A DNA stretch of 60,317 bases, filler included, from Hausera hauseri (taxonomy: Eukaryota), in NCBI GenBank assembly GCA_046269625.1. It is 10 parts of 10 records of this genome, joined end to end, with 100 filler letters (N's around TTAATTAATTAA, not from the genome) between each part and the next. Parts side by side here need not be neighbours in the genome. Positions count along the whole stretch, not along the records: positions 1 to 9,805 come from JBJURY010286613.1; 9 more parts are not named here. One strand, 5' to 3'. A program made the position numbers and the translations under genes. Below the pieces are notes generated by a model. The model made no database searches, was not told the origin of the DNA, and was given only the letters and a program-made list of their open reading frames with translations. Positions 1 to 59,511 of this stretch are shown here, piece by piece. How positions within the stretch are numbered: position 1 is the stretch's first letter; every line of letters starts with the position of its first letter.

Positions 1-22
1 GATTTATATCAGCCGAAGAATT

Positions 23-1358
23 ATGTCAGCTGCTAATATTATTGCACCAAACTTTCGGAAATGGACGTTGTTTCCAAACCAGGCAAATGTTTGTAATGCA
101 ACAAAACTACGGGAACTAAGAGAATCCATAAAGGAAGCAAACTTAGCCCGGCCGTTAGAAACTCCGGAGTATGATTTTGGACTACCCAAAAACGAAAACG
201 AATGGGACGCATATCTAAACGCAATAGTCGCCGAAAACCCGAAAACTCCCGTGCGCTTGTACGAAACGTATATTCAGTGTGGAGATGCTTCTGGATTCGG
301 CACAAACTAAAAAGGATCTAATTAAGTCGATCAGTGTAAACCTTACTGAAAATCAACTAAGGCGGTTAGTTCCCACATTAACTAAATTAGCCAGCGAATG
401 TACTGCACCAAAACTTTTAATTAAAGAATATGCTAAATTCTTAAAGACAAGGCCCGAAGAGACGATTAAAATAAGAATAACGTCTGACTAAATGGACGAA
501 AAGGAGCATGAATTTACTACGCGCTCTCTTATGAGCGATGTATTATTATGGATAAAGAGCAATGGATGCACCTATGAGCTGAACTATAGACTTTATCTTA
601 GAGGAAGAATATTAGACGAACTGGAACTACTAATAGAAGTTGGAATTATTCCAGGTGAAGTAAACCGGATAGTAGTAACAATTCCCACCGACGAAACAAA
701 AGAAGAGGCCACAAGGAAGTCAAAGACTGAACAATGGGTAGGACGAATTGTAGGAGCTCAAGACACAATAATGTACTTCGAATACTTGCAGACAGACGAG
801 GACAAAAAACAATATGATAAGAATTTAGTGCTACCCAGTAATATCGCTCCGACTGTAACCAAACAGAAGCGCCCTGTCGGCAGGCCACGGAAGATACGAG
901 AAGAAATTGACTATAACGAAAACATAATCAGAAAATTGAGACAAATGTCCATACCGACCTTCAGTGCAGATGACGAAAAACTGAATGAACTCATAAAAAT
1001 TGATACGTATAGTAAACCACTCTAGTCTCGACGGCGATATACTAGACGAGAAAGAGAAGGCTATATTTATTGCAGCCAAAACCATGAAAATTTTTGATGT
1101 AAATTATCCAGAAGCTCCTCAAGCAATGAAACGATAATCGAGAAAATTATGGTAGAGAACACTGTGGAGAAGTTAAGAAAAGTATTGCGGTATTTGGCCG
1201 CTAAATCCAATCCAGTCCGAGATAATGAATTCAATAAGGCCATTAGCTTGGCAAGGAAGGCTGCCAGGAATCTGCCCCGAGAAGTAAACTGGTCCAAATT
1301 ATTTGAAAGAGAAGAGAAACGGCAAAACAAGTCCTTCCTAGGCAATAATAGAATTTAA
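23..1358 (+). pseudogene. N-terminal region of the element polyprotein containing a ubiquitin-like domain (465-683) and an AT-hook (867-893)
   Basis: ORF pieces 279-491, 492-1025 and 1149-1358 share a frame; IKIRI...RLYLRGRILDELELLIEVGIIPGEVNRIVV parallels ubiquitin [38 protein letters not shown] fits the GRP AT-hook core. Confidence 0.55.
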
Positions 1359-1361
1359 GAC

Positions 1362-3757
1362 TTGTTACGAAACGTAACCGGAAATAATAGAGGGAACGAG
1401 TCAAACTGGTTAATTAACTTCTTAACTATGATGATGCTAATAAGGCAAATGGGTGCAGTTACCGTGTACGACTGCGACAAATTTAAACTTGGCCAAAAAT
1501 ACTCATTAATGGATTTGGAAATGTGTGAAGATGCGAGGCCACATAAACTAAAAACAAAAGAAAAAAGTTACGCGCTGTACCAACAACGGGAACTAGTTAC
1601 ATTAGACGGAATAGAATGTATGTTGCGACGATCTCGCAGTATCTTCCAATGTGGACAGGTACACGGGCATTCATCGATAATCAAGCCAACAACCTCACCA
1701 ATTCCGATGAACTTAGAACGCCAGCATTGTAAGCAAGCTAGAGAAACTAAAAGATTAAAATGGGATGGCATGGAATTAAAAATGCATCAAGGAAAGATAA
1801 TCAGAGTATATAAAGTGGCAGCTGGAAGACTATATATGCACACTGGACATTATAGTGGCGCAGAATACAATACTGGGAAATGATTGGAGTCGAACATCGT
1901 AGTGGTAGATTTTTACAAAACCGAGATGCGCCTACAAAAGGTAATGTTTCATAGCGCTACTAAACTTTACACAGAAAAGCAGAAGTGCCACGTTCAGGAT
2001 GGTACTTGTTCCTTTAGAAGTTCCGTGGTAATTTGGGAACCTCAGCCAAGACCGACTGCAATTTTATCAGAAATAAAGAACTTAAGTTTAATGAGACGAC
2101 AGGGAAACGATACATCAGTAGCACAGAAACTAAATCTAAAACGCAAGAAGTTATAGACGAACAGTTCACACCTACTACACTGATTTCTATTACTCATGGA
2201 TTTGGATTTGTGAAAAAAAATGTACTCACAAGGTGCGATGTCATAATGTACGCCACCAATTATAAAGCATTCTTTGTAGCTGAGACGACGATAAACGCCA
2301 GGACATTTAAGCTCGAGACTCAAAATATTCGAATTGAGGGTTATTTGAGAAACAGAGACGATTATTTCTACTATAAAGGACAAGCTGGAATAGCCGAGTT
2401 ATATCACAAAATAATAATAAATGACTGCAAATTAAACTTGGAAGTCATGCTGACTAAATTGGTTTTAATATATGCTAATCCTAAATTAGCATCACCAATA
2501 ATTCCAATGAAAGAAGGCGTTTTCGGACGAGTAACCAAAGAAGTCCTACTGACTTATGAATGTGAAAAGAATGAGGTACCTATTAATGTGGAAGAGAAGA
2601 AGTGTATGTAGAAACTTCCAGTAATATACCAAAACGTACCAAGGTTAGTAACACCAATTACTAGAGTATTGTTGGCAAACTCTACTCAGCCGACAATTCT
2701 GAGAGACTGCAAGATCAGTCAAGGCGAACCCATGTTCAGACACAGCGAAACCGATTGGGTAAGTTAACCAAACGGCGGCATAATTACGCCACCGACCAAG
2801 TTAACCGGAACAAATTTAATAAAGGGAATAACCGACGATAAGTTTCAAGATACCGCCACAAAAGGCATTTACCGACCAAAGGAAGTAGAGGCGCACCTAC
2901 AATTCCTTGCTTTCCCCCGTCAGCGCACACATGAATTAAACAAAGCGATGCATAGAATACTCGAGGATTCGCGTTATCAAGAAAAGTGGAAATCATTGCT
3001 CGGTGTCAACTATTACCGGAAGGTGACCACGGAAATATTGTATAAGATTTGGAGAAGATTCCTGATATTTGGACAAGCCGCGTCGGGATTTCTAGCAATT
3101 TTTTTCCTGATTCAACTGATCAAAGCAATAATTCAAGCGGTTATAAACGGATACAAGATATTCACCTTGACAGGATTCTCGTGTAAGATTCTAACAGCTA
3201 TTATAACACCTCTTGGTAAATTTTTAAAGGCTTATAAAGATAGTAGATGGAAAACGGATGTGAAGCGACATGTTGGCTATTATAATCGAAAACGTAAAAG
3301 ACGCATATTCGATTATAGGCAAAACTTCATAGACGGTAAGACACGAAGAAATAACTCTGACGATGACGAGCCTAAAGGAGGAGATGTTAGCCGCAAGTTG
3401 AATAGGCACAAAAACTACTCTGTTATGAAACTACCATTACCAATACTGCCGCCAACGGGACGTATATATAAAGACTGTGAGAAACAATCTATGAGTTCGT
3501 ATCAGACAGGGATCTACCGGAAGCCGTTTAGTCTAGAGGATCCTTACGAAGGAACCAAACACTACTGGATATTGCGTAAGATCCACGGAACGGAAAGAAC
3601 GTTTGCCCCACATCGTCGCTCAGCAGTCGACAATCACGGTATAATTTATTCACCTAGAATACCTAGACCAAACGAAAAGCAGTCAACATTTATCGGAAGC
3701 CGCGAAACACACCATCTCAGAAACCAAGAAATTCAACCGCCAGTTGGAAAACAGTAA
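1362..3757 (+). pseudogene. env: Chuvirus-like / herpes gB-like (class III fusion) envelope glycoprotein, disrupted
   Basis: Hydrophobic signal (WLINFLTMMMLIRQMGA) then VYDC...SL..LEMC; CGQVHGHSS; LYHKIIINDC; GVFGRV..EV...YEC; LPVIY...TPITRVL; KGIY; TM region FGQAASGFLAIFFLIQLIKAIIQAVINGY. This is the cysteine/motif pattern I recognise from chuviral G and retroelement-captured gB-type env. Confidence 0.85.
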
Positions 3758-5865
3758 ATAGAAAACGCGAAGTATACGAATAACGAACTATACCCAATTG
3801 GAGAATTAAGACAATTATTTGACCAACCAGTCGGAACCACCGAAGTTACCATTAACAACTACAAGGTGTCTACGATACGACGTCCCCAAATAGCACCAAG
3901 TTGTTACGGTACAGTAATCGATGGTAGACCCTTCGCAAAAATCCAACTAGAAGATTGGGAAGTTTACGCACTGATAGATACAGGATCCGAGATATCACTA
4001 ATAAAGTATGATTCAATACCTCAATTCCTACGGAAACAATTATATCCACCTCCCACAACAGACCCGAGAAGTGTTAGAGCTTTCGGACAATCGTCGAAAA
4101 GTAAATTCCTTTGGAAACCGGAAATTCGCATAATGGGATAATCCTTCCATTACGAATTTTTAGTAATTGAGCAATTAACTGATGATGTAGTATTAGGATG
4201 TGATCTATTGAAACAACTACCCAACATAGCGATATATTTTAATGCAGGGAAATTGATAGAACTTGGCCAAATAAAAGGAGTTAAAACTACTAAAGACAGA
4301 AAATTCGGAGAGATGTGGATTCCTGTGGATGAAAACATACCGCCCAGAACAGAAATATTAATATATGCTCAGATACGTCAAGATGACGACCAGCTAATAT
4401 ATTTTGAGCCGAAGGAATCACTTAATCCAAACATCGTGCTCAGTAATATTTTAACAAGAGTATCAACAGGGCGCGTACCAATCAGGATAGCGAATAATAA
4501 ACCCACTCCGATCAAACTGTATGCCAATACCACTTTGGGACACACGTATAGAGTATTATCAGTCACCATCGAAGAGAAACCTTATAAATGTACCAAATTT
4601 CCACCCCACGTTGAGACTAAATTTTCACCGAAATAATATTGCCGATTTTACGAATTACTTTGTAATTATAGCTCAGTCATTGCTAAGGATGATGAAGATA
4701 TTGGCCGAGCGAAAGCCTTAAGACTCACGATTCCACTTAAAAAAGCCTGGGTCCAACGATGAAATAGATTTAGAGGATCAAAAGATGCCGAAATAGTACC
4801 CCCTCCACAGTCATTAAGGCCGGAGATAACTAAGGAGGTTGAGCGAATGTTGAAAACCGACATAATCAGACCAAGTTATAGATCTTGCTATTCACCTACC
4901 CTTATGGTTAAGAAGAAAGGTACCGCTAAGCACCGATTTTTATCGACTATTGAGCGTTAAACACACTTATGATGAAAGACTCCTTCCCATTGCCATCGGT
5001 AAAGGAAGCTTTGGATAGACTTTCCGGCGATAAATAGTTCACCATACTCGATTTACAATCCGGATACTGACAAGTAGAAATAGAGGAAGAAGACCGTTAT
5101 AAAACGGTATTTAAGACACACGACGGTATATACGAATTTAATGTTATGCCATCTGGAATAACTACCGGACCGGCCATCTTCACCCGCATAATGAACAAGA
5201 TACTAATGTGACTGGAGCATGCGTTCGCCTACTTGGACGACGTCATGATTGCGTCGAAAACGGAAGAGGGTCATTTAAAGGATATTGAGGGTACATTCAT
5301 GAAGCTGGAGCAGGCTGGATTGAAAGTGAATTTCAAGAAGTGCAAATGGGCTCAGAATTCTCTGTCGTGCTTTAGACATATAGTTGGAGAAGGAGGGTCG
5401 AAGCCAGATAAATAATTATTAAATAAGAGATGGGACTGCATGGAACCCCAAAATCAAAAGGAGTTAAGACACTGGTTAGGGTTATGTGGGTATTATGCTA
5501 CCTATGTGACAAACAAATCAAAAATAAACGCACCTTTGTACCGCTTGCTTAAAAAGGGGATCAAGTGGAAATGGACTGACGTCGAGCAGAAAGCTTTCGA
5601 CGAAATGAAGAAGATTCTAACTAGTGAACCCGTTTTAAGATATCCCGACTTCAACCTACCATTCATAATCAAATCACACGCCAGTAAGGAAGGCATCGGA
5701 TATGAATTAGCTCAGAAAGGAGAAGACGAAGAGCTAGAGCACCCGATCGCATATGGAGGACGCTCTCTAAAAAAAGGCGAAAAGAACTATTCTGTAACGG
5801 AGTTGGAAATGTTAGCGGTAAAGGAAGCCCTGCGACATTTTAACGTGTACGTCTATGTACGTCTA
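3758..5865 (+). pseudogene. pol: Gypsy-type pol: aspartic protease, RT and N-terminal part of RNase H; truncated, no integrase
   Basis: ALIDTGSEISLI, VLGCDLL; RT FTILDLQSGY, YEFNVMP, AYLDDVMIAS; RNase H ASKEGIGYELAQ, EKNYSVTELEMLAV; sequence switches to unrelated DNA after RHFNVYVY. Confidence 0.92.
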
Positions 5866-5876
5866 ATTGAGCCAAG

Positions 5877-6580
5877 ATGGATGAGTTAATACAAAACATT
5901 ATTATAACATTATTGGAATTTCTAAGGACTTAAAGAACCAATATGTTCGAATTGAGACCAAAGTAGAACTGCCGAGAGGCAGACAAATTTCTGTCCGATT
6001 TATACCACTGAACGCCTTGGTTCCTATTCCGGAGTATTGTTATCTGGCCCGACGACGACCTACTGTGTGCTGTGAACTTCAATTAAGACAAGAGTATCAG
6101 TTACAACTGGATTTGTACAATACGTACTCCGGAGAACGAAGCACTTATTTAAGGGGATACCGTCCAAAAATCGGAATATGGAAGCGTCCATTTCCAACAA
6201 CTACGAGGGAACCATCTACTGTTCCGAGAACCACTCTCACTACTGCGATCGTGACTTCAGACGAACTGCTCAAGAAGGCAAAAAATAACAAAATCCTATT
6301 CTACGCTGAGGAAACGTTAATTTACGACGTCAAAATTGAATATCGCACCATGCACATCAATCAAATCGTAGTCTTAAGAAGGAATAGTCTGGAAACTGAA
6401 TGCAAATCATTACGACCACAACATAACTTTGTAGTCAGAATCACTGCAAAGGGTAAAAACCCTAAACCTTTTACAGTGCGGACTCTTGACAACAAAGTTG
6501 AAGTAATGCAGTATAAAGATTTTAGTACCCAAAATGCGTTCACCACAAAAGTTCTATTGAGAAAAACAATTTACCGATAA
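5877..6580 (+). pseudogene. Unknown element-borne ORF (frameshifted)
   Basis: 187-aa ORF 6017-6580 with short upstream extension, same strand and composition as the element; no motif confidently recognised. Confidence 0.4.
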
Positions 6581-6681
6581 TAGCTATATTTAGTTTGTCA
6601 ATTTTCGTTCTTGTCACGTTAACGGCGATGATTTTCCTAGTTTCCAAAAATTGTAGTAAACACAGTAAAAATCGAAAGGGA

Positions 6682-6840
6682 TATAAAAAGGTAAAAGGGT
6701 GCCGAGACGAACTTTATGATAGCATAACTTGACAATTAGAGATCAGGTTATCCTATCATCAGACAGAGAAAATGTTTTGTTTCAAAAAGATGATCTGTCT
6801 TATGATTGACCTTTGTTTTTATTTTAGCAGAGTAAGTATG
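6682..6840 (+). promoter_or_regulatory. Putative internal promoter (TATAAAA 6682-6688) and 5'-UTR intron (GT 6747 ... TTTTAG 6827/6830) before ATG 6838
   Basis: TATA box, CAG|GT donor, branch-like TTGAC, pyrimidine tract and AG just before the accessory ORF start. Confidence 0.4.
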
Positions 6841-9272
6841 GCCGAAAAGGCAAAGAATTCAGCAACAAGCTCCGAATATGATATTGGCAACTTCCTGCAA
6901 CAACGTGTAACAGTCCTCAAGCCACTATATAAAAGCTTATATCGCCAAATTGGATAAAATCTGAAAAACAAAACTTACGTCGAAATCGATCAGGAAAGCA
7001 AAATACCAAATGGGTTGAAATGGGGATTAGAGGAAAATCAACTGATTCGGCTACACGCAATGCGAAACCCCAGAAACGTGCGAGCATACTTGTTGAGGGA
7101 TATGATTCCGTATGAGCCGACGCATCAGCAATTGTACATATATGTCGCTGATAGAGAAATTTAATACAGGGCCGTAAGACAATCCTGGATCACACAAAAG
7201 GGACAGCAATGGAAATTTAGCACTTATGAATTAAGTTGCTATAGTCTTATGAACTATGCTTTAAAATTCAGAATCGCAGGACTTCCAACCAAACGCATGT
7301 TAAAAATGACCTAGTGAACAGAAGTAATAAAACCGCTACCATCATTACTATGAATATAGAAGCCTTCAGAAGATGAGATAGAACAGAATAAAGAATCTTA
7401 CAGACTAGTTCCAGACGGCCAAAATTCCCGAATTTTAGCCGTGAACTATGGAGAAAAGGATGATGGATGGTATACACAGATTGAAACCTATATTCGAGGT
7501 ACAAACGGGGAAGAACTTATAAACAAAATAATTGCACCCAGAACTAGGGTGAAGGACACCTTTACTGATGTCACCGGAATTACGAAAGCACAACTCGAAA
7601 CAGAGAAAGGTTTCTTAGAAATCCAGGAAGATATAAGCCACTGTTTATATGGATATATTGTAACCGGATTCCGAGTGCAAGAAATTTTAGGAAAACTAGG
7701 AATTAGACCAGAGTACCAGCCGGAATTTGTGAACTGAGTCGAAATCCAGCAGTTGTAAGTCAAGTAGAAAACACATTAATGAGAAAAAATGGGTGCCTCC
7801 TTCCGTCAGCATCAGGTGAATCACAATTCAAAATGATGTTGGAAGCCATGAATGGCGAACGATTAAAATTTCCTAAATTAATATCAGCGAGTCAGAGTAC
7901 GAAGCTTATAAAGGATATTTACGCCTCGCTTAGATGGGAACATTAGTGTAAACCTAGGAACCCCATACATAATTTAATATCCGATTACAACCCAAAGATC
8001 TTGATACAAAAATTTCGGAAAGGGTTTAGTGAATACTCAACTCATAGACAAGTCGAGCCCCAAGGACACAACCGATTCCAAATAACCGTTCATAATAGGT
8101 CAGCGAAAACGTTCAGCAACCGGCAAGAACCCTCGACCAGCCGAGCCCGAGAAGAAATCTTAAAAAGTTCAAGTAACCCCGAAACTTCAAGAGGACAAAA
8201 GACTAAAACTTCCTTCTTAGAATATATTAGCAAAAAAAGGAGAAAAAATAGTAAGAACCAAATGGAAGAAAACAAGTCACCTGCTAACAGCTCTACGCCA
8301 AACGAACAAATGAATGAGCATAACAAGAAACCCAAGAGGGAGAGAGCTGGAAATTCCGACGAAATCAAGGTGAGAACTGCTGATACAAAGCCCCGTAAAA
8401 CAGAAGTGAACGTTCTTCGGAAGAATTGGGAAGAAGATGAACCGATCATAGTCACAGAACGTGGCCAAGTAAAGGAGTATACAAGAATGCTCGTCATGAC
8501 CGAATATTACAGCAAAGGCAAGATCAAGGAAGTCATATTCTACGTATCCACTGTTCCTAGGAGAATCGTAAGTGGAAACGAATACGTTCGAGAAGACACA
8601 ACCATTGGCAAATACTTAGCCCCAATATTCCAGTCGAAAAACGGTACCAATAGATTAACCATTCCGGTAGATACCAAAGTCCGGATACAATTAAAAAGGC
8701 AATATAAGAAAACCGGAAAACCAGACTTAGACCAACAAAAAATCGTCGAATGGACGTTGGTCATCGTGTCACACGACTCCAAGAAAACCTCTATCGATCC
8801 GAAACAAAAACGACTATATGAATACCTATATCAAGATAAGAAGGGATTAGTATTTGAACAAATAGAAGTTGACGAAAATCTCGTGGACATAGATGGAGGT
8901 GAAAAAGAAGAATGCCATGTTTATGACGCCAATCTCTATCAAGGATTCGTGGTGTTGAATAATAAAGACTGTATCCGCAAGTACTGCCGGTACTGTTTAG
9001 AAATGTGGACCCTGAAAAATGGTAAGACGAGCTGCCCTGTATGTAGAGCTGCGGCTACAAGACTGAGGTACTACGCCAATGGAGAAAATAAAAAAATAGT
9101 GGAGATATTGCCCCCAAAACCCACTACATCCTATCACTTTGACTTACACTCACCGCAAGAAGAATCGGATTCGAAATCGGACCTACGTGGACGAATGAAC
9201 CGGTTACGCGGCACCTCTTCTGACGCAATGGGCACATCCGAGAGTGCCGTTCAGGGAGCAGAAATGTTGTGA
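6838..9272 (+). pseudogene. Accessory protein: REXO4/ISG20-like DEDDh exonuclease fold (catalytic residues substituted) plus C-terminal RING finger
   Basis: IIAPRTRVKDTFTDVTGITKAQLETEKGFLEIQEDISHCLYGYIVTGF matches the REX4-type YVKP..VTDYRT.VSGI...L......EVQ..V...L.G.ILVGH pattern; C-terminal CHVY...CIRKYCRYC...W...CPVCR (8913-9047) is a RING pattern. Confidence 0.7.
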
Positions 9273-9805
9273 AATGGTCGTAAACGCGAATTGTACATAT
9301 GCCAATACGAAATTGAAAAATGAAACCGAAAGTGAAACTGAAAATAAGTATTGAAAATGAAAAATTATTATTATCCAGAATTAAGCAGCAAATCTGTAAA
9401 TATGAAATTGTTTATTGGAAAGGAAAATTATTGATTATTCCTTAAATAACGGAAAAATTAAATGAACATTGTAGAAAATTAGTTGTAAATAATAATTGGA
9501 AAATTATTGCTTATGACTGCTAACTATATAAGGCAGTACAAAATCAGTTAACGCGAACATTGAACATTGTGAAGTTGAAGTTGAAGTTGAATTGTATTGA
9601 GGTATTTGGAAAGCTCCGATATCCAGTTATTCTTGAAAATTGAATTTGTTCGAGCTATTGAAGCGTTGTACGAGATTCGGATATTCCTCGAAGGATCCCA
9701 CAGTTGAATTATTGAAAATTTGAAGCAATTATTACTTATTAATCCGACGATTGTATCGTCTGGTATATTTTGTTTATTGTCAATAAATTTGTATTCTAAA
9801 ATTCT
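9265..9805 (+). repeat. Putative 3' LTR of the env-bearing element (truncated by contig end)
   Basis: Purine tract AGGGAGCAGAAA immediately followed by TGTTGTG at 9265; TATATAAGG at 9525; AATAAA at 9782; partner LTR not in window. Confidence 0.55.
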
Positions 9806-11614: not shown

Positions 11615-14600
11615 ATGGTGGGTTTTGTTTTCTTATGTGTGCTCCTCAAACAATATATTTGTTTAGATTTGCAACTTTTACAAATTTTACATGGTGCAGA
11701 AACATGAGGAGCAGAATTACCACAATGTGATGCAGCAGTATTTTGGATACCAATACAACACGTAGTATGCCGGGCCGGTTACGAAGAATTTTACATCCAG
11801 CATAAACAGCATCTGGATTATTTTACAAAATTGAAGAAAGAAATATTCAACAGTAAAATACCAATGGCAACAAGTGCAGAAAAGCAATTCAGATGTGCGG
11901 TTCCTATGCTTATTGCACATCCACAGCACATAATCTGCAACGGTGCCATGAAACGATGCAGCAGTATTATGGACACAAATTAAAAAGGATCCAGTATTAT
12001 ATATATATCCGGGATGTGAGACTGTATGCGGCGCAGATTGCATAGAGTTCTATTATGATCACAAACATCATTTGAGTTACTTCGCATCAAAGTCAAAGAA
12101 GGCCATCTTTAATGAGCAATATAATCTTGATGCACCTGCTTCGCACCATTCTGCTTCGCATTAGGCTGCTGGATCCGGTGCAGCAGCTGCGAAGCATATT
12201 AGGGAATTGAAACGCTCAGCAGCATCATGCGCAGCTACATCATGCACAGATGCTCCACCGAAAAGCCCAAGGCAGCGGTCAGCTGATGTGGCAGCATTAA
12301 AGAAAAATATCCGCGGATATATTATTGATGCAACTGGTCAAACAACCCTCAAAGAGTTTCTGGAGTATACAAAGGAAGAGACAGAGGGAATTCTCCAGGA
12401 CAACATTGCAGAGCTCAAAGCCCTTAAAGTGAATATGAAACTGGAGGCCACGTACATTAATGTTGATGGCAAAGAATCCAATAGGGCCTTCAAGATCAGA
12501 AATAGGCCAATATTGGAAAGAATCAATATTTTAGAATGGATGTTTGAGGCGCACGCAAAGATAATCCATGAAACCGAGGAGAGCCAGGATAAGAAGAGTG
12601 GCTGGACTCTGGCAACAGTAAAGAAATTGCGTGTTTTTGTGCAGAAGTACTCTTCCATGCGTGACAGCTCCTGTACACAGCTTCCGGAATGGATCGTCAA
12701 TAATAAAGCATGCATCAATGTCCTTGATGACGAAAACAAGTGTTTAGTGTATGCCATTTTATGTAAACTCGTATGGGATCAAAAATATGCAGCATATCGA
12801 GTTTGGCGATATAATGATTTGCAGCACAACTATAACTTACAATGTATTAAGTTCCTTCCATCCACAGATGAAGTTAAAAAATTCGGGCGAATCAACAACA
12901 TGTCCATCAGTATTTTCGGATTGGATGAGGAGGACAAATTTTATCCCTTGTCGATATGTGATACTGGATTGGAAGATCATAGGAATCTGCTCCTACTAGA
13001 CGATGGAGAAAAGAAGCATTATGTTTGGATCAAGAACTTTAAGCGTCTAGTCAGATCCCAAATAACAAAGCATGAGCACAGAATCGAAATATGCAAAAGA
13101 TGCTTGTCCCATTTCATGGCAAGTTAGCTGTAAAAAAGCTAAAGGAGCACAAGACTATTGCAACAACAATTATTGTATCAAGCCAGAATTTCCCAAGGAA
13201 GACTACATTGAATTCAGGGAGTTCAAGAAGAAAATCAAGGTGCCAATAGTTATCTATTGCGACTTTGAAGCTATTCTGTGTTCAGTTCACAGTTGCAGTC
13301 CTAATCCCCAACATAGCAGCAAAACGACATACCAATATAATGTACTTTCATCATATTGCATGTATATCAAAGGACTGGACAGTGAACCATATCTATTCAA
13401 AGATCCGGTCGCAGCAGCACAATTCATGAAGCGACTTGACGATATGGCTCATAGACTTGGGGATATGTTGCAAAAGCATAAGGACGACATGAACATGTCG
13501 AAGAAGCTAAAAGAAGAATGGCACAAGGCAATAGTATGCTACTTGTGCTCCAAATCATTCACTAATGATAATTATAAAGTCAGGGATCATTGACATTTTA
13601 CAGGAACATATCGGGGCGCAGCATGCAAGAACTGAAATCTACGTTGAAAAACATGTACATATGTGTCTGTAGTGTTTCACCATCTCGGTGGCTATGATTC
13701 CCGTTTCATTGTTCGGGAACTGGGTAGCATTGAAGAAAACATTGAGATGATCCATAGTAGTGAGGAGAAGTACATTACTCTTACCAAGCATGTTGAAAAA
13801 ATCAGGTTTCGCTTCGTAGACAGTTTTTGTTTTATGTCGATTTCACTTGACAGTTTAGTGAAGAACCTCCCTGTAGAAGAACTGAAGGAGATGAAGTAAT
13901 TCTTCCTTACTACATTTGACCTTGTTAAGAGGAAATGCGTGTTTCTCTATGACTATATAACATCATGGGAAACACTGGATGAGATCTCATTGCCGGCCAA
14001 GACGGACTTTTACAATATCCTCTCTGATTGCGATATCAGTGATAGGGACTACCAGAATGCTCAGAACGTCTGGCATGCATTTCAATGCCGAACATTAGGA
14101 GAATACAGCGATATATACGTCAAGATGGACGTGCTGTTTATGACGGATGTCTTTGAGAGATTCAGGGATGTTAAGATAAGGGCCATGCATTGAATCCGGT
14201 TCATTCATTTACGGCTCCAGGTATGAGTTGGGCAACCATGCTGAAATAAACCGGTATTAGGCTTCAGATCATAAACGATTACGACAAGATCCTTATGATC
14301 AAGAGAGGCATTAGAGGAGGAATATGCCAGATAATTCACCGATGTAGCGAGGCCAACAACAAGTATATAGCCCAGTATGAACCATCCAAGGAATCCACAA
14401 ATGTATATCATACCTGGATACCAACAACCTATATCGATAGGCAATAAGCGCCCCATTGCCATATAATAACTTCAAGTGGGTCAAAAATCCTGAAAACATC
14501 CCTATACTGGACCTGAATCCCACTGGAGATACGGTCTACATACTGGAGGTGGATATGGAATATCCGGCTTCTATCCACACAAGGCATCAACAGCTGCCTT

Positions 14601-15446
14601 TCCTCCCTGAGAGCAAGCCTCCGCCCCATGGAAAGCATAAAAAACTGCTATGCCATTTGGATAGTAGGGAGAGGTATGTAGTCCACTACATAAACTTCCA
14701 TCAGGCGGTCAGAAATGAACTGCGCATTACGAAGATCCATCGGGTCCTGAAGTTTAGCCAGTCCAACTGGCTGCAGCCCTACATAGATCTCAATGGCAAG
14801 CTGCGGACAAATGCCAAGAAAGATTTTGAGAATGATCAGTTCAAGCTTTACAATAACAGCGTTTTTGGCAAGATCATGGAGAATATCCGCAACAGGATGA
14901 ATATCGAACTTGTTTCTGAGTGGAAGCGGGCAAAGAAGCTCATTTCCAGGCCCAGCTTCCACAGCAGCATCATATATGCGGAGTACAGTCAGCATTCATA
15001 TGCTGAAAACATCGCTTGAGTTTAACAAGCCGATATATGTGTGTATGGAAATACTAGACCTATAAAAGACCATTATGTACAAATTCCACTAAGGCATTAT
15101 GGTCCCAACATTCAAGTCCATACAGCTGATATACATGGATACTGATAGTTTCATCTATCGGATCCATACAGAGGACATTTATAATGACTTTTCTAAGTTC
15201 ACACAGCATATTGATGCTTCTGATTATCCGAAGGAGCATTCCAACTGTTCAATTACCAACAAGAAAATCCTTGGCAAATTCAAAGAGGAGGTGAATGGGG
15301 CAATTATCTTGAGGTTTGTGGCTCTTAGGTCCAAAATGTATGCGATTGATGCATGTTGTCATATCAAAGAGAGAGCTAAGGGCATTCAAAGGGTTATCTT
15401 AGGCAAGATCACTTTTGCGGATTATGTGAGAGTTTTGCATGAATAG
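11615..15446 (+). pseudogene. Polinton-type protein-primed family B DNA polymerase with endonuclease VII-like Zn domain, disrupted
   Basis: SGWTL..., LPEWIVNNKACINV, VIYCDFEA, CYLC...VRDH.HFTGTYRGAAC, FHHLGGYDS, KLYNNSVFGK, YMDTDS, LGKFKEE, LRSKMY. Confidence 0.9.
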
Positions 15447-15558
15447 ACTCTCACAATANNNNNNNNNNNNNNNNNNNNNNNNNNNNNNNNNNNNNNNNNN
15501 NNTTAATTAATTAANNNNNNNNNNNNNNNNNNNNNNNNNNNNNNNNNNNNNNNNNNNN

Positions 15559-37869: not shown

Positions 37870-39202
37870 CGAGGCGTATCCGTAAAGTAAGTACCGTTTC
37901 GTTCTAATGCCGCTGCAGCGCTGCTGTCGGCGCTCAGTGCATGCGTACTTGTTTCCTCTGTTCATCGGCTACAAACTCGCGCCATTACGGTTGATTTGTC
38001 TTGCGTTGTGCGTTTACGGTGGCCGTTTATAATGTTTAAAAAAATCGATGCTCCCGCCGACTGTGAAATTCGTTCTGTGATCCGGTTTTTGAATGCGAGG
38101 AACGTGAAGCCATCCGAAATCCATCGTCAGATTACGGAGATTTACGGTGAAAGTGCAATGACGGATGGAATGGTTCGGAAGTGGGTAAGACAATTCAAGG
38201 AAGGACGGACAAATGTCCACGACGCAACACGAAGTGGGCGGCCCTCGCTTGTGACGAATGATTTGGTCAACAGAGTGGATGAGAAAATTAAAGCGAACAG
38301 ACGAGTGACAATGACAATGCTTGCAGAGGACTTTTCACAACTTTCGAGAACTGTGTTGCATGAGATCGTAACCAAACGTTTAGGGTATCACAAGCTGTGT
38401 TCCCGCTGGGTACCGAAAATGCTGACGGATGAGCACAAAACAAAGCGACTGGGCAGTGCTCTGACATTCCTTACCCGGTACCATGATGAAGGTGAGGACT
38501 TTTTAAACCACATCGTTACCGGTGATGAAACGTGGATTCGCCATCTTACTCCAGAATCCAAACAACAATCGATGGAGTGGAGACACACAAGTTCCCCCAC
38601 AAGGCACAAATTCAAAACAACGTTTTCGGCGCAAAAAATCATGTGCTCTGTATTCTGGGACACGAAAGGTGTTTTGCTTGTGGAATATTGTCCCAGAGGT
38701 CAAACCATCAATGCGGAACGTTACCGTGTGACTTTGCGGAATCTTAGGCGAGCTATTCAAAACAAACGTAGAGGAATGCTCAGTGACGGAATTGTGTTGC
38801 TGCATGACAATGCTCGGCCCCATACTGCTCGTGACACTGAACGGCTAATTGAACAGTTCGGTTGGGAACAGTTCAATCACCCGCCGTACAGCCCAGACTT
38901 GGCACCGTCTGATTTCCACTTGTTCCAGCACATGAAACGAGAACTTGGAGGTAGGCGCTTTGCTTGTGATGACGACGCAAAAAACGCTGTAAATGTATGG
39001 CTCTCTTCATTGGCGGCAAGTTTCTTTGAGGCAGGTATCAATAAGCTGGTGAGCCGCTACGACAAGTGCCTCAACAATGGTGGAAACTATGTTGAAAAAT
39101 AATGTAAGGTATGATCTTTCATGTAAACAATAAATAATGTTTAAAAATATTTCTTTTATAGGTTTTTTTTCAAAACGGTACTTAGTTTCCGGATACGCCT
39201 CG
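37870..39202 (+). mobile_element. Full-length mariner transposon
   Basis: 30-bp TIRs (CGAGGCGTATCCGTAAAGTAAGTACCGTTT, 2 mismatches) flanked by TA on both sides. Confidence 0.97.
38032..39102 (+). CDS. Intact mariner DD34D transposase (356 aa)
   Basis: HTH region, WVPKML, TGDETW, HDNARPH, YSPDLAPSD with exactly 34 residues between the second and third Asp; no stops. Confidence 0.96.
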   Translation: MFKKIDAPADCEIRSVIRFLNARNVKPSEIHRQITEIYGESAMTDGMVRKWVRQFKEGRTNVHDATRSGRPSLVTNDLVNRVDEKIKANRRVTMTMLAEDFSQLSRTVLHEIVTKRLGYHKLCSRWVPKMLTDEHKTKRLGSALTFLTRYHDEGEDFLNHIVTGDETWIRHLTPESKQQSMEWRHTSSPTRHKFKTTFSAQKIMCSVFWDTKGVLLVEYCPRGQTINAERYRVTLRNLRRAIQNKRRGMLSDGIVLLHDNARPHTARDTERLIEQFGWEQFNHPPYSPDLAPSDFHLFQHMKRELGGRRFACDDDAKNAVNVWLSSLAASFFEAGINKLVSRYDKCLNNGGNYVEK

Positions 39203-47452: not shown

Positions 47453-50437
47453 CTAACTTTGGCCAGCCTCAATTCTCTTTACCCCGGCGTAAATATTGGT
47501 GACCGGTGTCGAATTCTGTTTCTGCCGTCGATTATTATTCGGTATCACCATTGGCGACTCGTACGCCTGAATGAAATTCACAACCATTTGGTCCGCGGGA
47601 AATCCGTAAAGATAATCCGTCGGACCGTTCTTGAACAAGTGATCGAGTTTCGCGGCAATTTTGTCGCCCTTGGTAACGCACATGGGAATAATGACCGTCT
47701 AGTCACCGAATGCCATACAAATGGGCATGATAAACAAGTCGTTGACGTTGGCATTGAACGACTTCATGTTGAGATATCCGTCATTGACTTTCAATGACAG
47801 ATCGACATTCGGTTCAGGATGAAGATAGACGGTGTTCGGTATTACGGATGGTTTGTAATGGAGTGGCCGAGATAACGATGCGAGACACTGTGACAGTTGT
47901 CTGGCGTTAATCGGTGTGCGTTTTTCTCCACAGTCCCGCGCAACATGGCCGGGTTTGTTACATTGGTAACATGTGAGATTGGAATTTATGTTGACGGATA
48001 GACGTAATGTGATTGATTCCAGCAACAGGTAGTGTGCGTTATCAGGTCGTTGTAAATTATCAGAATTACTATGTAACCGCAAAATGTGAGCGAAACAATG
48101 GAGAATATATTGACATCTGTCTGAATGGAGACTACCACCTAGATTATGTGACAAATCAAGGGATCCTCAATGGCCATGTATGCCGACTGCCGGCCTTTGT
48201 TTATTTTGTACAGAGGTTCAGTTTGTCGTATAGTGATGACCTGCTTATCAAACGGGAACTCAGTGGTGTAGTAGTGAAAGAAATTCATCCACAAATAACC
48301 AAGTGTGGGCAAATTAATCGGATTGGATTTCCAGAATTCATAAATCAAATTCACTTTTGATTGATATCAAGCATCCCATCCGTCGACCTGATTTGACGGA
48401 CGTTCTTTTCCATGAAATAATTCTTGGAGAACTGGGAGAATGCCGAGATTTTGTAAGAATTGGATCAGTATCAAAACGTATGCGTAAGACGACAACGTGA
48501 CATGTGATGCATCGCCGATATCGCAACACTTTAAAATGTACATGATCAGATTGCCAAGGGGTCTCGTACATGACCTCAGATCGGCGTATAACTTGAGCAT
48601 CTTCGTATTTTGCAGTGCCAAACTATTGTTAATACTGATATCCCCTTGGATAATATCCTTCAGATAGAACTTAATAATCGGCACTTTTGCAGGGACAATG
48701 TACACCAGATCAATGCCGTTTAATTTCTCCCGCAACTCTAGACAAATGTTCTGCAGTCGTGTCGTTATTTCCTTGGTCGACGTTTTTTCTAGACGTTTGC
48801 CATCGCCGTAAAATTCCAGACAGATGTCCAGATCACTATCACGATTCATAAACCCATTGTTGGCTGATCTGGACAGTTTCGGTTCGGCATTGCTGTACAG
48901 TTCACAGATGGTCTTATAGATGGTCATAAAGGTGTTATCGTTGATATTTTGACTGTTTTCGTCGGGTAAAATGCTCTCATATTTTCCGATCAATAACAAC
49001 ATAAGTTTGTCCAACCAGACGCCATTAACATTTTTTAGAACGTCCCGTAAGTCATCAAACCGTGGAATGGCATTATTGCATTTTTCTCTCCTATGTACTT
49101 CCGTATTATAGATGGCATATGTAACGTCCAATATATACTTGTAAATGTGCATCTCATTGAAATCCTAAATCATGTCTTCTTTCTGGATACCGTTTACTAT
49201 TTGTTCATTACATGCATTGGGCCCTGCTCGATTTTATAACCCCTTTAACATGAACTCTGTCTTTAAACACAATGGGTAATTTTCATGCATCGCGGTCCAC
49301 ATCACCGGATTTCATCTCAATCAGGCCGTTAGTAACATTGATTGAATCGACTTCACAACCAAGCGATTCGGCCATTTCTATATTCCTGTCACTGACAGTC
49401 GTTTTATTCAAATCTACGTCGTCAATATCAAACAAATATAATGGTATTTCTTCTTCATTGTGTATTTCCGGTTCAGACTCGTTACTTTCTTCGATAAAAT
49501 CATCATCGAATGATTTGTTTATAAACGACTGAACCGACCTTTTGATCAAGTCAAAAGCATCTTTCGTATTGATTTCCGATTGAGTCTAGAGTGAATTTGA
49601 TTCGAGATATTCGGAAAAATCTTCAAAGATAATTTTGGCAATTTCCAACGCATGAACACAAAACACGACAAAGTTGGTAATGAAAAAAACGCCAAATTCT
49701 TTATCTTCAAATTCAACAACCAGAAAAAACTATTGATGCCCCGTTTGTCGTTGAAAATCGTGATGAGAATTTTTGACAAACACTATTGGACAAACATGGC
49801 AACCGGCCACTTGCGAACGTCGTAAAACGATTTCTCCTCTGTGTAGAGTTTTTTCAATTCCCATTCCACCAATCTCATACAATCGGTTTCAGAAAACAAA
49901 TTGCTATCGTTAAAAATTGCCTGTGCTTCTTGTTGCGACTGCTTAAAATTAGAAGAATATTGGCGAAAATATGCGTATGCTTATTTAGCAAACTTTTCCG
50001 AACATCACTTATAGATTTCAAATCAGCAAACAAATCGCGACGCAAAAAACAACCGCATGATGTTTCGAAGAAAAAAACGGACTCACCAGTGAAAGTCTAT
50101 ATTTCGATGTGCGACGAATCCAATTGTTTGTTTCAAACTGACGCCAATTGTTGTTAGTCCCTAGTATATCAGCATTCGTTACTATCTCCTTTAAGTAAAT
50201 AACAAGGATAAAATGATCAAAATTTATAACCGCCCTTTGCTGGTGCATGGAAATACTGTCTGCTAAATTCCGATGCACCAACAACGTCCCGAAATTATTT
50301 TGTAAAATTAATTTTGTCCAATTTGTTACAACCGGTAACGTATGATTCTTTTCTTTCCTTCCCGAGAAATTTGTAAAAGTAAAACTCTCTTCAAACAGCA
50401 AAATTTTATTTTTAACTTTCAAAAAAACTTTTTTCAT
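47453..50437 (-). pseudogene. Long intronless decayed ORF containing a TUT4/7 (Cid1-family)-like terminal uridylyltransferase module and a CCHC knuckle
   Basis: S.NNGF...SDLDICL, AKVPIIKF, GDISINN.LALQNT.ML..YA, DIGDAS...LSSYAY....IQFLQ, LW..FF.YYT.EF, AIEDP..LSHNLG, CYQCNKPGHVARDC (47930-47971); fragments join through stops and frameshifts with no introns. Confidence 0.85.
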
Positions 50438-55531: not shown

Positions 55532-58500
55532 CTACAATGCCACATATCCATGAGGTAGTGTGTGGATTCCATCGCTCAGGATCTGCCTCTTGTCGTCCAT
55601 CCAATCTAGGCTTTTCTTCTGTAAGGTAACAGTTTGGATGTTATGATCCCTAGATTGGATCCTTTTCATTTCCGATATAATGTAAGTCTGCTCCTGCAGA
55701 ACTGTCACATAGTCTTGAAAACTGATCTTTTGGCCAATGTAGCCCTTTGAACCCCTTTTGCTTGCTTTTTTATTTGACCACATACGTCTAGGGCATACAT
55801 TTTAGATCTGAGAGCCACAAATCTATATAGTATTGCCCCACTTACCTCGTCTTTGAATTTCCCAAGGACCTTTTTGTTGGCAACTGAATAGTTCGGATGA
55901 TCGTTCGGATAGTCCGAGGTATCCATATGCTCTGCCAACTGGGCAAAGTCCTCATAAATGTCGTCTGTATGGATCTGATAGATGAAACTATCAGTATCCA
56001 TATATATCAGCTGTATGGACTTGAACTTGGGGACCATGATATCGTAGTGGAAATGATACATCAGGGTCTTTGACAGGTCGAGGATTGCCATACCCACATA
56101 TATGGGCTTGTTGAACACCAAGGATGTTTTCAGCATATGGATGCTGACCAAGTTCTCAGCATATATGATGCTGCTGTGGAAGTTAGGCTCGGCAATATTC
56201 TTCTTTGCTCGCTTCCAGTCACATATCATTTCGATGTTGATCCTGTTGCGGATATTCTCCATCGTCTTTCCAAAGACCTAGTTGTTGTAAAGCTAGAACT
56301 GGTCCTTCTCATAATCGTTCTTGGCATTTGTCCGCAGCTTCGTATTGAGATCCATGTAGGGCTGCAGCCATATGGACTGGCTGAAATGCAGAGCTCTATG
56401 AATCTTTGTGATGTGGAGTCCATGTCTAACGGCCTGCTGGAGATTGATGTAGTAAACTACATACCTCTCCCTATTACCCAGATGGCAGAGCAGCTTTCTA
56501 TGCTTTCCATGAAGCCGAGGCCTGCTCTCAGGAAGGAAAGACAACTGTTGATGCCTTGCGTGGATGTAAGCAGGATATTCCACATCCACCTCCAGTATGT
56601 AGCCCGTATCTCCAGTGGGATCAAAGTCCAATATAGGGATGTCTTCAGGATTCTCGACCCATTTGAAGTTATCATACGGCAATGGGGCGCTCATTGCATA
56701 TCCATACAAGTTGTTGGAATCCAGGTATGAAATATATGAGAATTCCTTGGATGGATCATACTGGGCCACATACTTGTAATTTGCCTCACTATACCTGTGA
56801 ATGGCCTGGCATATTCCGCCTCTTATGCCTCTCTCGATCATAAGGATCATATAATAATCCTTAATGATCTGCAGTCTAATACCAGTATAACGCAGCATTG
56901 CTGCCCAACTCATCCTTGGAACCGTAAAGAAATGAGCCGTATCCAAGGCATGACTCTTTATTGTGACATGCCTGAAACCCTCAAAGACATCTGTCAGCAG
57001 CAGCACGTCGGTCTTGAGGTATATGTAGCTGTATTCCCTAATGTTCAGCATTGGAGTGCATGCCAGACATTCTAGTCATGCTGGTAGTCAGAATCACTTA
57101 TATCACAATCATTGAGGATAGTGTAAAAGCCTTCTTGTCCGGCAATGGGGTCTCATCCAGTGTTTCCCATGAGGTTATGTAGTCATAAGGAAACACGCCT
57201 TTCCTCTTGACGAGGTCAAATTCAGTGGGGAAGAACCGCTTCATCTCCTTAACTTCTTCTGCAGGGAGGTTCTTCGCTAAACTATCCAGTGACGGGCCCA
57301 TGAAGCGGAAGCTCTCTATGAATCGAAGTCTAATGCGGCCCACATGCTTGGTGAAAGTAATGTATTTTTTTCTTACTATTAAAAATGACATCAATATTCC
57401 CATCAATGTTGCCCAGTTCCCGAACAATGAAGTGGGAATCATAGCCACTGAGATTGTGGAACACTACAGGCACATATGTTCATGTTTTGCAACGTAGATT
57501 GCAGTTGTTGCATGCTGCTCCTCGATATGTGCCTGTAAAATGGCAATTATCCTTGACTTTATGATTCTGCTTGGTGAATGAATTTGAGCAAAAGTAACAT
57601 GTTGTTGCCCTACTCCATTCTTCAGCTTGTTTCCACGACATGCTCCGATTATCCTTATGCTTCTGAAGGATGTTTTCAAGCTTATGAGCCATATCTTCAA
57701 GTCGTTTCATGAACTGTGCTGCTGCTCCTGGACCCCTGAATAGAAATGGTTCACTGTCCAGTCCTTTGGCATACATGCAATACGATGGGAGTTCATGATA
57801 TTGGTATGCCGTTGTGCTGCTATGTTGAGGACTGGGAGTGCAGCTGTGAACTGGACGCAGGATCGCTTCAAAGTCGCAATAGATAACTGTTGAGACCTTG
57901 ATCTTCTCGAACTCCTTGAATTCAGTATAATCTTCCTTTGGAAATTCTGGCCTTACACAGTAATTGTTGCTGCATTACACCTTGTGCTCTGCAAGCTTGT
58001 CCACTGCTGAATCACCACTGAAATGAGATAGGCATCGCTTACATATTTCTATTTGTCCATGATGATTCGTAATTTGGGATCTGACAAGACGTTCAAAGTT
58101 CTTGATCCAAACATAATGTTTCTTTTCTCCATCGTCTAGTAGGAGCAGATCCCTATGATCTTCCAATTCAGAATCATATATCTGAAAGGGATAGAATTTA
58201 TCCTCCTCATCCAATCCAATGGTGTTGGTTGATATGTTGTTCATTCGACTGAACTTAATTTCCTCTAAGGATGGAAGGAATGTGATGCATTGGAAGTTAT
58301 AGTCGTGCTGCACATCCTTATATTTCCAAATTCGTGAAGCATTATGTTGATCAGGCACGAGTTTCGATAGAATGGCATACACGAAACACATGTTGTCATT
58401 ATTATGGACATTGACACATGCTTTTTTATTAGTGATCCAATCAGGGACTTGAATATATGAACTACCCCGCATGGAGGAGAATCTGTGCACATACACAAGC

Positions 58501-59511
58501 AATCTTTTGATGGTTGCCAGAGTCCATACGCTCTTCTTACTCTGGTTCTTATCAGCTTCACGGATCAGCTTCGCATGCTCTTCATGCAGCCATTCTACTA
58601 TATTGGTGGCTTCAAAAATGGGTCTATTTCTGGTCATGAAGGCCCTTTTGGACTCTTCGCCATCAACATTGACGTATGTGGCCTTAAGTTTCATATTAGA
58701 CTTAATGGTCTTGAGCTCAGCTATGTTGTCTTGAAGAATCCCCTCTGTTTCTTCCACTGTGTACTCCAGTAACTCCTTGATGATTGTTTGACCAGTTGCA
58801 TCAATGACATATTTGCGGCATTTCCTCTTTAATGCTGCAGCATCAACTGGCCTCTGTCTTTGACCCTTTGATGCAGCCGGTACGCCTGATGCGCGTTTTA
58901 GTCCTGCATCTGGCTGTACTGCAGGCTGTGATACTACAGGCTGTAGTACTACATGTCGTGGTACTGCAGGCTGTGCAACTGGCTATGTTTATTAAAAATG
59001 ATCTTCTTTGACTTTGATGCGAAGTCAGTCAAATGATGTTTGTGATCATCATAAAACGGTATGTATTCTCCATCACATACAGCCTCACATCCTGAGCAAA
59101 TATAATAAATTGTCCTGTTGACTTTGTGTCTATAATAGCTCCTCATGGTATTGTGACAATTCTGAGGGTTGAGTATTACACATGTGCAATACACATGAAT
59201 TGCATCTTTGATTTTCCTTTGGCACGAAAGTCGTTATTGGCATATTGGTACTGAATATTTGTTTTTTTGACTTGGTGAAAGAAATCAAGTGCTGTTTATG
59301 GACATTGTAAGTCTTAATAATTGGTTTGGCATACTACCTCACATGTAGGGCATATATAATACTGAACCATGTTGTAAATATAGCTAAAGTATTTCATCAC
59401 AATACTGTGGCAATTTTCAGGCTCATGAATTTGAACCAAGCATTCTCTGTAAGGTTTGCACATCTAAAAATCAACCAATTATTTGAGCAGCACAATTAAA
59501 AAATTCACCAT
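55532..59511 (-). pseudogene. Near-complete Polinton-type protein-primed PolB with endonuclease VII-like domain, paralogue of 11615-15446, disrupted
   Basis: GSSYIQVPDWITNKKACVNV, CYFC...VKDNCHFTGTYRGAACNNCNL, KGVFPYDY, RGIRGGI, YLDSNNLYGYAM, YMDTDS, DDKR...GIHTLPHG; AATAAA at 55506-55511(-). Confidence 0.92.

Follow-up and report, generated by a model that had tools for sequence, protein, structure and literature searches.

The first piece of a 60,317-nucleotide (nt) stretch of Hausera hauseri DNA (GCA_046269625.1; the whole stretch, ten contig parts joined end to end, is called the window below) carries the remains of a Ty3/gypsy-type retroelement in which the gene for a viral fusion glycoprotein (env) precedes the protease (PR) and the reverse transcriptase (RT). 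The C-terminal half of the fusion protein, a linker, an aspartyl protease and the start of RT occupy a single reading frame, from 2018 to 4950. In all likelihood the remains are those of a Burro-like element, in a copy that has decayed and has no integrase; its shared frame from env through protease to the start of RT likely belonged to a membrane-threaded Gag-Env-Pro-Pol polyprotein, and the stop at 3755, between env and protease, is probably a product of decay. The element lies on the gap-free piece 1-9805, while the other pieces of the window are separate contigs joined by N44-TTAATTAATTAA-N44 spacers.

One reading frame from env to RT

The original prediction placed four open reading frames (ORFs) in one frame, split by single stops at 2609, 2765, 3755 and 4139. 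This is borne out, since all four lie in frame 2 (Table 1). The starts assigned to three of them, TTG at 2033, GTG at 3866 and TTG at 4208, are artefacts of the bacterial code. Frame 2 extends beyond 4636, past stops at 4634 and 4760, into the N-terminus of RT as far as about 4950. When this frame was translated with X at the stops, PF24664 (Monjiviricetes, chuvirus-type fusion glycoprotein) covered residues 62-408 of the resulting read-through protein and RVP covered residues 637-734. Three of the four stops therefore fall within conserved domains, as had been claimed.

That the intervening sequence translates as a sensible continuation also holds. The linker between env and protease has one stop in frame 2, compared with 20 and 11 in the other two frames and with 13.5 expected, and such openness, in any frame, was matched by 1 of 20,000 shuffles. 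The 56 codons from the stop at 3755 to the protease are free of stops, which happens by chance in 516 of 20,000 cases, and a codon-position score prefers frame 2 after this stop. As predicted, no long terminal repeat (LTR), gap or new gag separates the transmembrane anchor from the DTGS motif of the protease: the stretch is gap-free, no repeat of at least 40 nt was found within 1-9790, and neither a second protease nor a Gag match was found in the linker (3242-3925). A decayed first protease within the linker was considered and rejected (-2.6 bits, 215 of 1000 shuffles as good). The protease that follows the linker scores 44.5 bits against a profile of the proteases of its relatives (0 of 500 shuffles as good), and its motif is the only protease motif in the window.

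Intact relatives

Relatives of the window env were collected with phmmer against 1.84 billion representatives, which gave 495 proteins at E 0.001. The 150 best, together with two cluster members, made up 152 proteins, 114 of which span at least 290 of the 370 env residues. The env tree (FastTree) contains the window env and the best 45 of these 114 near-full-length matches, and all clade counts given here rest on it; the RT tree (IQ-TREE) has 26 RT rows. Word-seeded homologue searches and a PDB sequence search, with env-protease as query, gave no matches, a viral contig search gave no loci, and none of the 39 matches of an RT search among proteins longer than 2000 amino acids (aa) had env similarity.

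The best phmmer matches among those listed are long ORFs with env and then protease. Intact homologues with gB-like, RVP and RVT_1 domains in one protein, which the original prediction proposed as a check, do exist (P0042, P0043 and others). Six proteins (P0042, P0043, P0055, P0058, P0192 and P0195) carry env, protease, RT, RNase H and integrase, in this order, in one ORF, and P0046 is a single ORF that ends in RNase H. P0043 is 2627 aa long, P0042 2855, P0195 3003, P0055 3243 and P0192 4844; these five are 25-33% identical to the window in env and 41-46% in RT-RNase H. The predicted Env-Pro-Pol polyprotein, with its enzymes on the cytoplasmic side of the anchor, is upheld by these relatives, in which it is one intact ORF.

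In the env tree the window is sister to P0043 (0.85) within a clade of 15 relatives (0.94). A protease follows in the same ORF in 13 of the 15 (by 90% cluster, 11 of 13), RT (YxDD) is reached in seven, and five have a Gag-type CCHC knuckle upstream, again in the same ORF. The distance from anchor to protease, 303 aa in the window, is 126-386 aa in the relatives. In the RT tree the window groups with all seven env-pol RTs and P0029 at 95/95. Env and RT thus agree: the env-pol fusion is the state of the clade. It is very improbable that a chuvirus glycoprotein endogenous viral element (EVE) came to lie beside a gypsy pol by chance, or by mis-assembly of repeats. It is indeed common for chuvirus glycoprotein EVEs to lie beside gypsy fragments without having been captured (PMC10084718), and short contigs in series make up the window. 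However, the env is placed among env-protease ORFs and away from stand-alone glycoproteins, its RT belongs with those elements too, the linker is coding, and 1-9805 contains neither gap nor spacer. The other near-full env matches (n=99) have a median tail of 62 aa, and one of them has a motif match (unverified); the window env has neither the short tail of a stand-alone chuvirus glycoprotein EVE nor its lack of attached enzymes.

Six of the 15 relatives (P0192, P0048, P0042, P0044, P0045 and P0051) have 2 to 8 protease motifs, some of which lie behind the integrase or before env. P0043 is filed in NCBI under a Flavobacteriaceae metagenome-assembled genome, on a 9-kb contig; it is probably of animal origin and was binned with bacterial DNA.

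The stop at 3755

The original prediction allowed the stop at 3755 to be either decay or a read-through stop. Codons of the known domains carry 8 stops per 962, a decay rate that predicts 1.9 stops in the linker and 3.3 upstream of env. The observed numbers are 1 and 4, so that nothing special has to be invoked for the stops at 1356 and 3755. Moreover, 13 of the 15 clade relatives are free of stops from env to protease, and the stop at 3755 is probably decay. That it is instead real and leaky, giving excess Env and occasional read-through to Env-Pro-Pol in the manner of gammaretroviral Gag/Gag-Pol, is improbable. A leaky stop would fit the zero gap and the same frame and would solve the Env:Pol ratio; 3755 lies outside the conserved domains, and the stop count is compatible with a leaky stop (P 0.15). 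The codon, however, is TAA followed by A, which is in general the tightest stop, no stable RNA structure was found behind it (z -0.48; 60 of 200 shuffles fold equally well), and the stop-free relatives argue against it.

Slightly less probable again is that Env ends at 3757 and that pol had a message of its own, made by splicing or by an internal start, in which case the common frame would be left over from an ancestral fusion. In-frame ATGs occur at 3425 and 3491, four weak acceptor-like sites lie at 3318-3657, and Chary and Hayashi allowed gaps in their search for ENV and POL and describe three ORFs (PMC13524379). All these ATGs and acceptor-like sites nevertheless precede the stop. From 3757 to DTGS the frame has no ATG, the scan found no acceptor-like site 3' of 3757, and the relatives are single ORFs. 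For the independent start or acceptor for pol, which the original prediction had named, together with a conserved stop, as the contrary case, candidates thus occur only before the stop.

Several points weigh against a single polyprotein interrupted by decay. Stop counts alone prefer decay over a true stop by about 1.9 to 1 (0.285 versus 0.150). Within 3242-3754 the codon-position score gives frame 2 no preference, and no alignment of the linker with relatives was obtained across the stop (the best is equalled by 19 of 500 shuffles). The window holds no related stretch elsewhere, so the stop at 3755 is judged indirectly, from one copy and its relatives. Two of the 15 clade relatives, P0049 and P0057, end in the anchor region, and the 15 amount to 13 clusters at 90%, two pairs being cluster mates. 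The RT branch of the window is long (1.42), and its placement is therefore unsure. Finally, the signal-like stretch at 1410-1457 is weak, and no Pfam match to Gag was found in the window, including 2-1457.

Upstream of env

The original prediction described a basic region that runs through one stop into a signal peptide, and likened it to the capsid-signal-envelope polyproteins of RNA viruses. Frame 3 holds the upstream region, the signal-like stretch and the N-terminal third of env. A frameshift at about 2045-2075, which that prediction had missed, splits env between frame 3 and frame 2, and the upstream region is therefore in another frame than the C-terminal part of env. The likeness to RNA viruses is not supported. 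An RNA-virus capsid upstream of env was rejected in view of the ubiquitin-like (Ubl) domain found there and the CCHC knuckles of the relatives.

The core of the Ubl domain scores 9.5 bits against the P0043 and P0195 spacers (0 of 2000 shuffles as good), for segments that were picked by eye after the likeness had been noticed. A three-row profile of the window, P0043 and P0195 finds the Ubl domains of IQUB and ISG15 (E 0.003-0.007), and the window row alone has no Pfam match. Single-sequence folding of 228-1457 gave no usable model (pLDDT 34), and an Atlas search with 492-1022 gave no useful match (score 0.79). An AT-hook-like motif lies in the spacer near 867-899. The relative P0049 has a Bcl-2 domain (E 0.001); a Bcl-2 profile from three relatives scores below zero on the window, with only three rows set against a decayed copy.

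After the stop at 1356, ATGs occur only within or just behind the signal-like stretch (1428-1449). At the other end of the region, 2-310 is probably part of the same polyprotein, one frameshift upstream, and Gag would be expected further 5', beyond the start of the window.

Enzymes and the break in RNase H

RT-RNase H runs in frame 2 to about 4950 and then in frame 1 from about 4954. The spacer between PR and RT, which is conserved with relatives, has no dUTPase match in Pfam or PDB. RNase H breaks off near 5860, where 10 nt are duplicated in tandem (5846-5865), and no integrase was found downstream. The break probably took the end of RNase H, the integrase and a second signal (see below). With its many stops, frameshifts, truncated RNase H and missing integrase, this copy is dead and can make none of the proposed products.

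A probable second membrane protein and the 3' end

All five relatives that run past the integrase (P0042, P0043, P0055, P0192 and P0195) have a second signal-like stretch and ectodomain there, followed in four of them by a clear C-terminal hydrophobic anchor; this second protein is probably membrane-anchored. A C..L.P motif, like that of fibronectin type III (FN3) domains, is present in the second ectodomain of four of the five and recurs in the window at 5885-6577, where a profile of the four is equalled by 3 of 1000 shuffles. A five-row profile finds the FN3 repeats of Tie2 and EphA2 (best E 3.5e-4). The FN3-like domain of the window was modelled as a beta-sandwich (pLDDT 61). Foldseek returned nothing for this model at E 0.001, and a fold comparison was middling (best Z 7.3; FN3 domains Z 6.9, rmsd 2.5, 75-77 aligned). 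With phmmer, whole-length likeness of 5885-6577 to the second ectodomains of the relatives was not detected, and the link is the FN3-like motif profile only.

The accessory ORFs that follow have weak matches (RNase_T, E 0.14; zf-RING_2, E 0.005), both under the curated cut-offs. A frameshift and a stop separate the exonuclease-like stretch from the RING-like finger protein behind it, and 7318-9272 is possibly one decayed fused gene. DEDDy ORFs are described in LTR elements of rotifers (PMC5408684). The AT-rich non-coding end of the piece, 9273-9805, may be part of a 3' LTR; by eye, it contains a TATA-like motif (9525) followed by the motif TCAGTT (9544).

Proposed mechanism

What is observed is the order of the domains, their common frame, a linker that is coding, and relatives with one intact ORF. 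The steps proposed below are drawn from hydropathy and from what is known of type I membrane proteins. The internal signal (1410-1457) would direct the fusogen into the lumen of the endoplasmic reticulum, and signal peptidase would split it from the upstream Gag/ubiquitin-like part. The anchor (3056-3154) would bring the chain back to the cytosol, where protease, RT, RNase H and integrase would hang on the tail of the fusogen. Pol would then enter the budding particle via Env, and not via a Gag-Pol fusion, and the element's own protease would cut the enzymes free. A second internal signal, after the integrase, may export the FN3-like, C-terminally anchored protein.

A broader proposal is made tentatively, with somewhat more doubt than confidence. 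Burro-like elements might form a widespread enveloped lineage that encodes one polyprotein crossing the membrane four times, in which the enzymes are preceded by a gB-type fusogen and the integrase is followed by an FN3-like protein for attachment or receptor mimicry; Pol would be packaged via the tail of the fusogen, and in some members several proteases would serve different cuts. If so, a retrotransposon would contain a fusion-plus-attachment pair and would package Pol by a route that no retrovirus is known to use.

Table 1. Coordinates of the features of the element in the window
Feature	Position	Strand	Remarks
Open frame 2	2-310	+	cut by window start; no Pfam match
Pre-env spacer	228-1409	+	frame 3; four stops (489, 1023, 1095, 1356)
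Ubiquitin-like domain core	597-677	+	common to pre-env spacer of intact P0043 and P0195
Internal signal-like hydrophobic stretch	1410-1457	+	before VTVYDC start of fusogen; Kyte-Doolittle 1.46
Fusion protein, N-terminal part	1458-2054	+	frame 3; one stop (1881); PF24664 E 1.4e-14
Fusion protein, C-terminal part	2050-3241	+	frame 2; stops 2609 and 2765; PF24664 E 1.3e-38
Four ORFs	2018/2033-2611, 2768/2948-3757, 3758/3866-4141, 4142/4208-4636	+	all frame 2
Transmembrane anchor	~3056-3154	+	hydropathy
Second hydrophobic patch	3158-3214	+	hydropathy
Cytoplasmic linker	3242-3925	+	~226-228 codons; frame 2; one stop at 3755
Retroviral-type aspartyl protease (DTGS)	3926-4231	+	frame 2; stop 4139; RVP E 2.9e-5
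Conserved PR-RT spacer	4232-4633	+	matches P0042, P0043, P0046, P0192, P0195 (best iE 1.6e-7)
Ty3/gypsy-type RT and RNase H	4637-5860	+	RVT_1 E 1.1e-26; RT_RNaseH_2 E 4e-31; several stops
Remnant of second membrane protein	5885-6640	+	FN3-like beta-sandwich 6242-6520 (frame 2); transmembrane stretch ~6571-6640 (frame 1)
Decayed accessory ORFs	6838-9272	+	6838-7311 no assignment; 7318-7946 exonuclease-like; 7947-9272 RING-like finger protein

Other pieces of the window

The other contigs, judged by eye from translations, hold mariner, piggyBac-like, PolB-like and gypsy fragments, a content that suggests an animal source. Two decayed PolB-like copies of Polinton/adintovirus type (12165-15450 and 55705-58982) are 75-83% alike and lie on opposite strands of separate contigs. 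A mariner-type transposase ORF at 37891-39102 (+) is apparently intact, and an intronless fragment resembling a terminal uridylyl transferase (48367-49164, -) lies near a gag-like zinc knuckle; these two were also identified by eye.

Comparison with known systems

The in-frame gag-env-pol layout was published in 2019 for the planarian Burro elements (Arkhipova and Yushenova 2019, PMC6431247). According to the text of that paper, Burro/GYPSM1 are giant gypsy-like LTR retrotransposons of more than 25 kb with LTRs. Their ORF has an N-terminal Gag with CCHC knuckles, a ubiquitin/SUMO-like domain upstream of env, a Bcl-2-like domain just before it, a Mononegavirus-type env upstream of the protease, and a dUTPase-like domain between PR and RT. 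The window has the Mononegavirus-type env in frame before the protease, with the one linker stop read as decay, and the ubiquitin-like domain upstream of env; its PR-RT spacer sits where Burro has the dUTPase-like domain. The 9.8 kb contig piece showed no Gag, MATH, BIR, ankyrin or LTRs, and the integrase is missing. Since Gag, size, LTRs and host are beyond the reach of this piece, the element is called Burro-like and not Burro, a likeness judged by description and not by direct sequence comparison. In the text on Burro there is no mention of an FN3-like second membrane protein behind the integrase (PMC6431247).

Chary and Hayashi (eLife, PMC13524379) describe GAG-ENV-POL errantiviruses with HSV/gB-type ENV in Nematoda, Bryozoa and Platyhelminthes. 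As far as their text goes, these share with the window a Ty3/gypsy pol, a gB/chuvirus-type env before pol, and an ectodomain between two hydrophobic segments. The window has PR-RT-RNase H of Ty3/gypsy type (RVP, RVT_1 and RT_RNaseH_2), which in the relatives continues to H2C2 and rve integrase, and, by its PF24664 matches, a predicted HSV/gB-type env before pol. It lacks the intact ORFs with full RT and integrase of the errantiviruses and is a relic of that kind. The main text of PMC13524379 does not use 'polyprotein', 'fused', 'in-frame' or 'single ORF', and gives gene order, not fusion. The same text refers to nematode endogenous retroviruses (Sacco et al. 2022), in which a metavirus captured the glycoprotein of an RNA virus and has env ahead of pol. 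Those elements have nematode hosts and are likened to the window by description only. Reportedly, the nematode elements form one continuous gag-env-pro-pol ORF.

The proteins P0043, P0042, P0195, P0192 and P0055, which come from public assemblies, have the env, protease, RT and RNase H of the window in one ORF; unlike the window copy, they are intact, with integrase, and some have 3 to 8 protease motifs as against one. No literature was found on an FN3 protein in an LTR polyprotein with a fusion glycoprotein, although figures or supplements of the known papers may show this or the fusion. The second FN3-like membrane protein after the integrase thus seems undescribed in the searchable literature; repeated proteases also seem undescribed, with no literature search aimed at them. 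The env-pol layout is real but already known, and the window copy is a new dead member of a published class, a divergent one whose RT is at most 46% identical to that of the relatives found. Its intact relatives are a natural set for asking how one polyprotein delivers Gag, fusogen and enzymes across a membrane.

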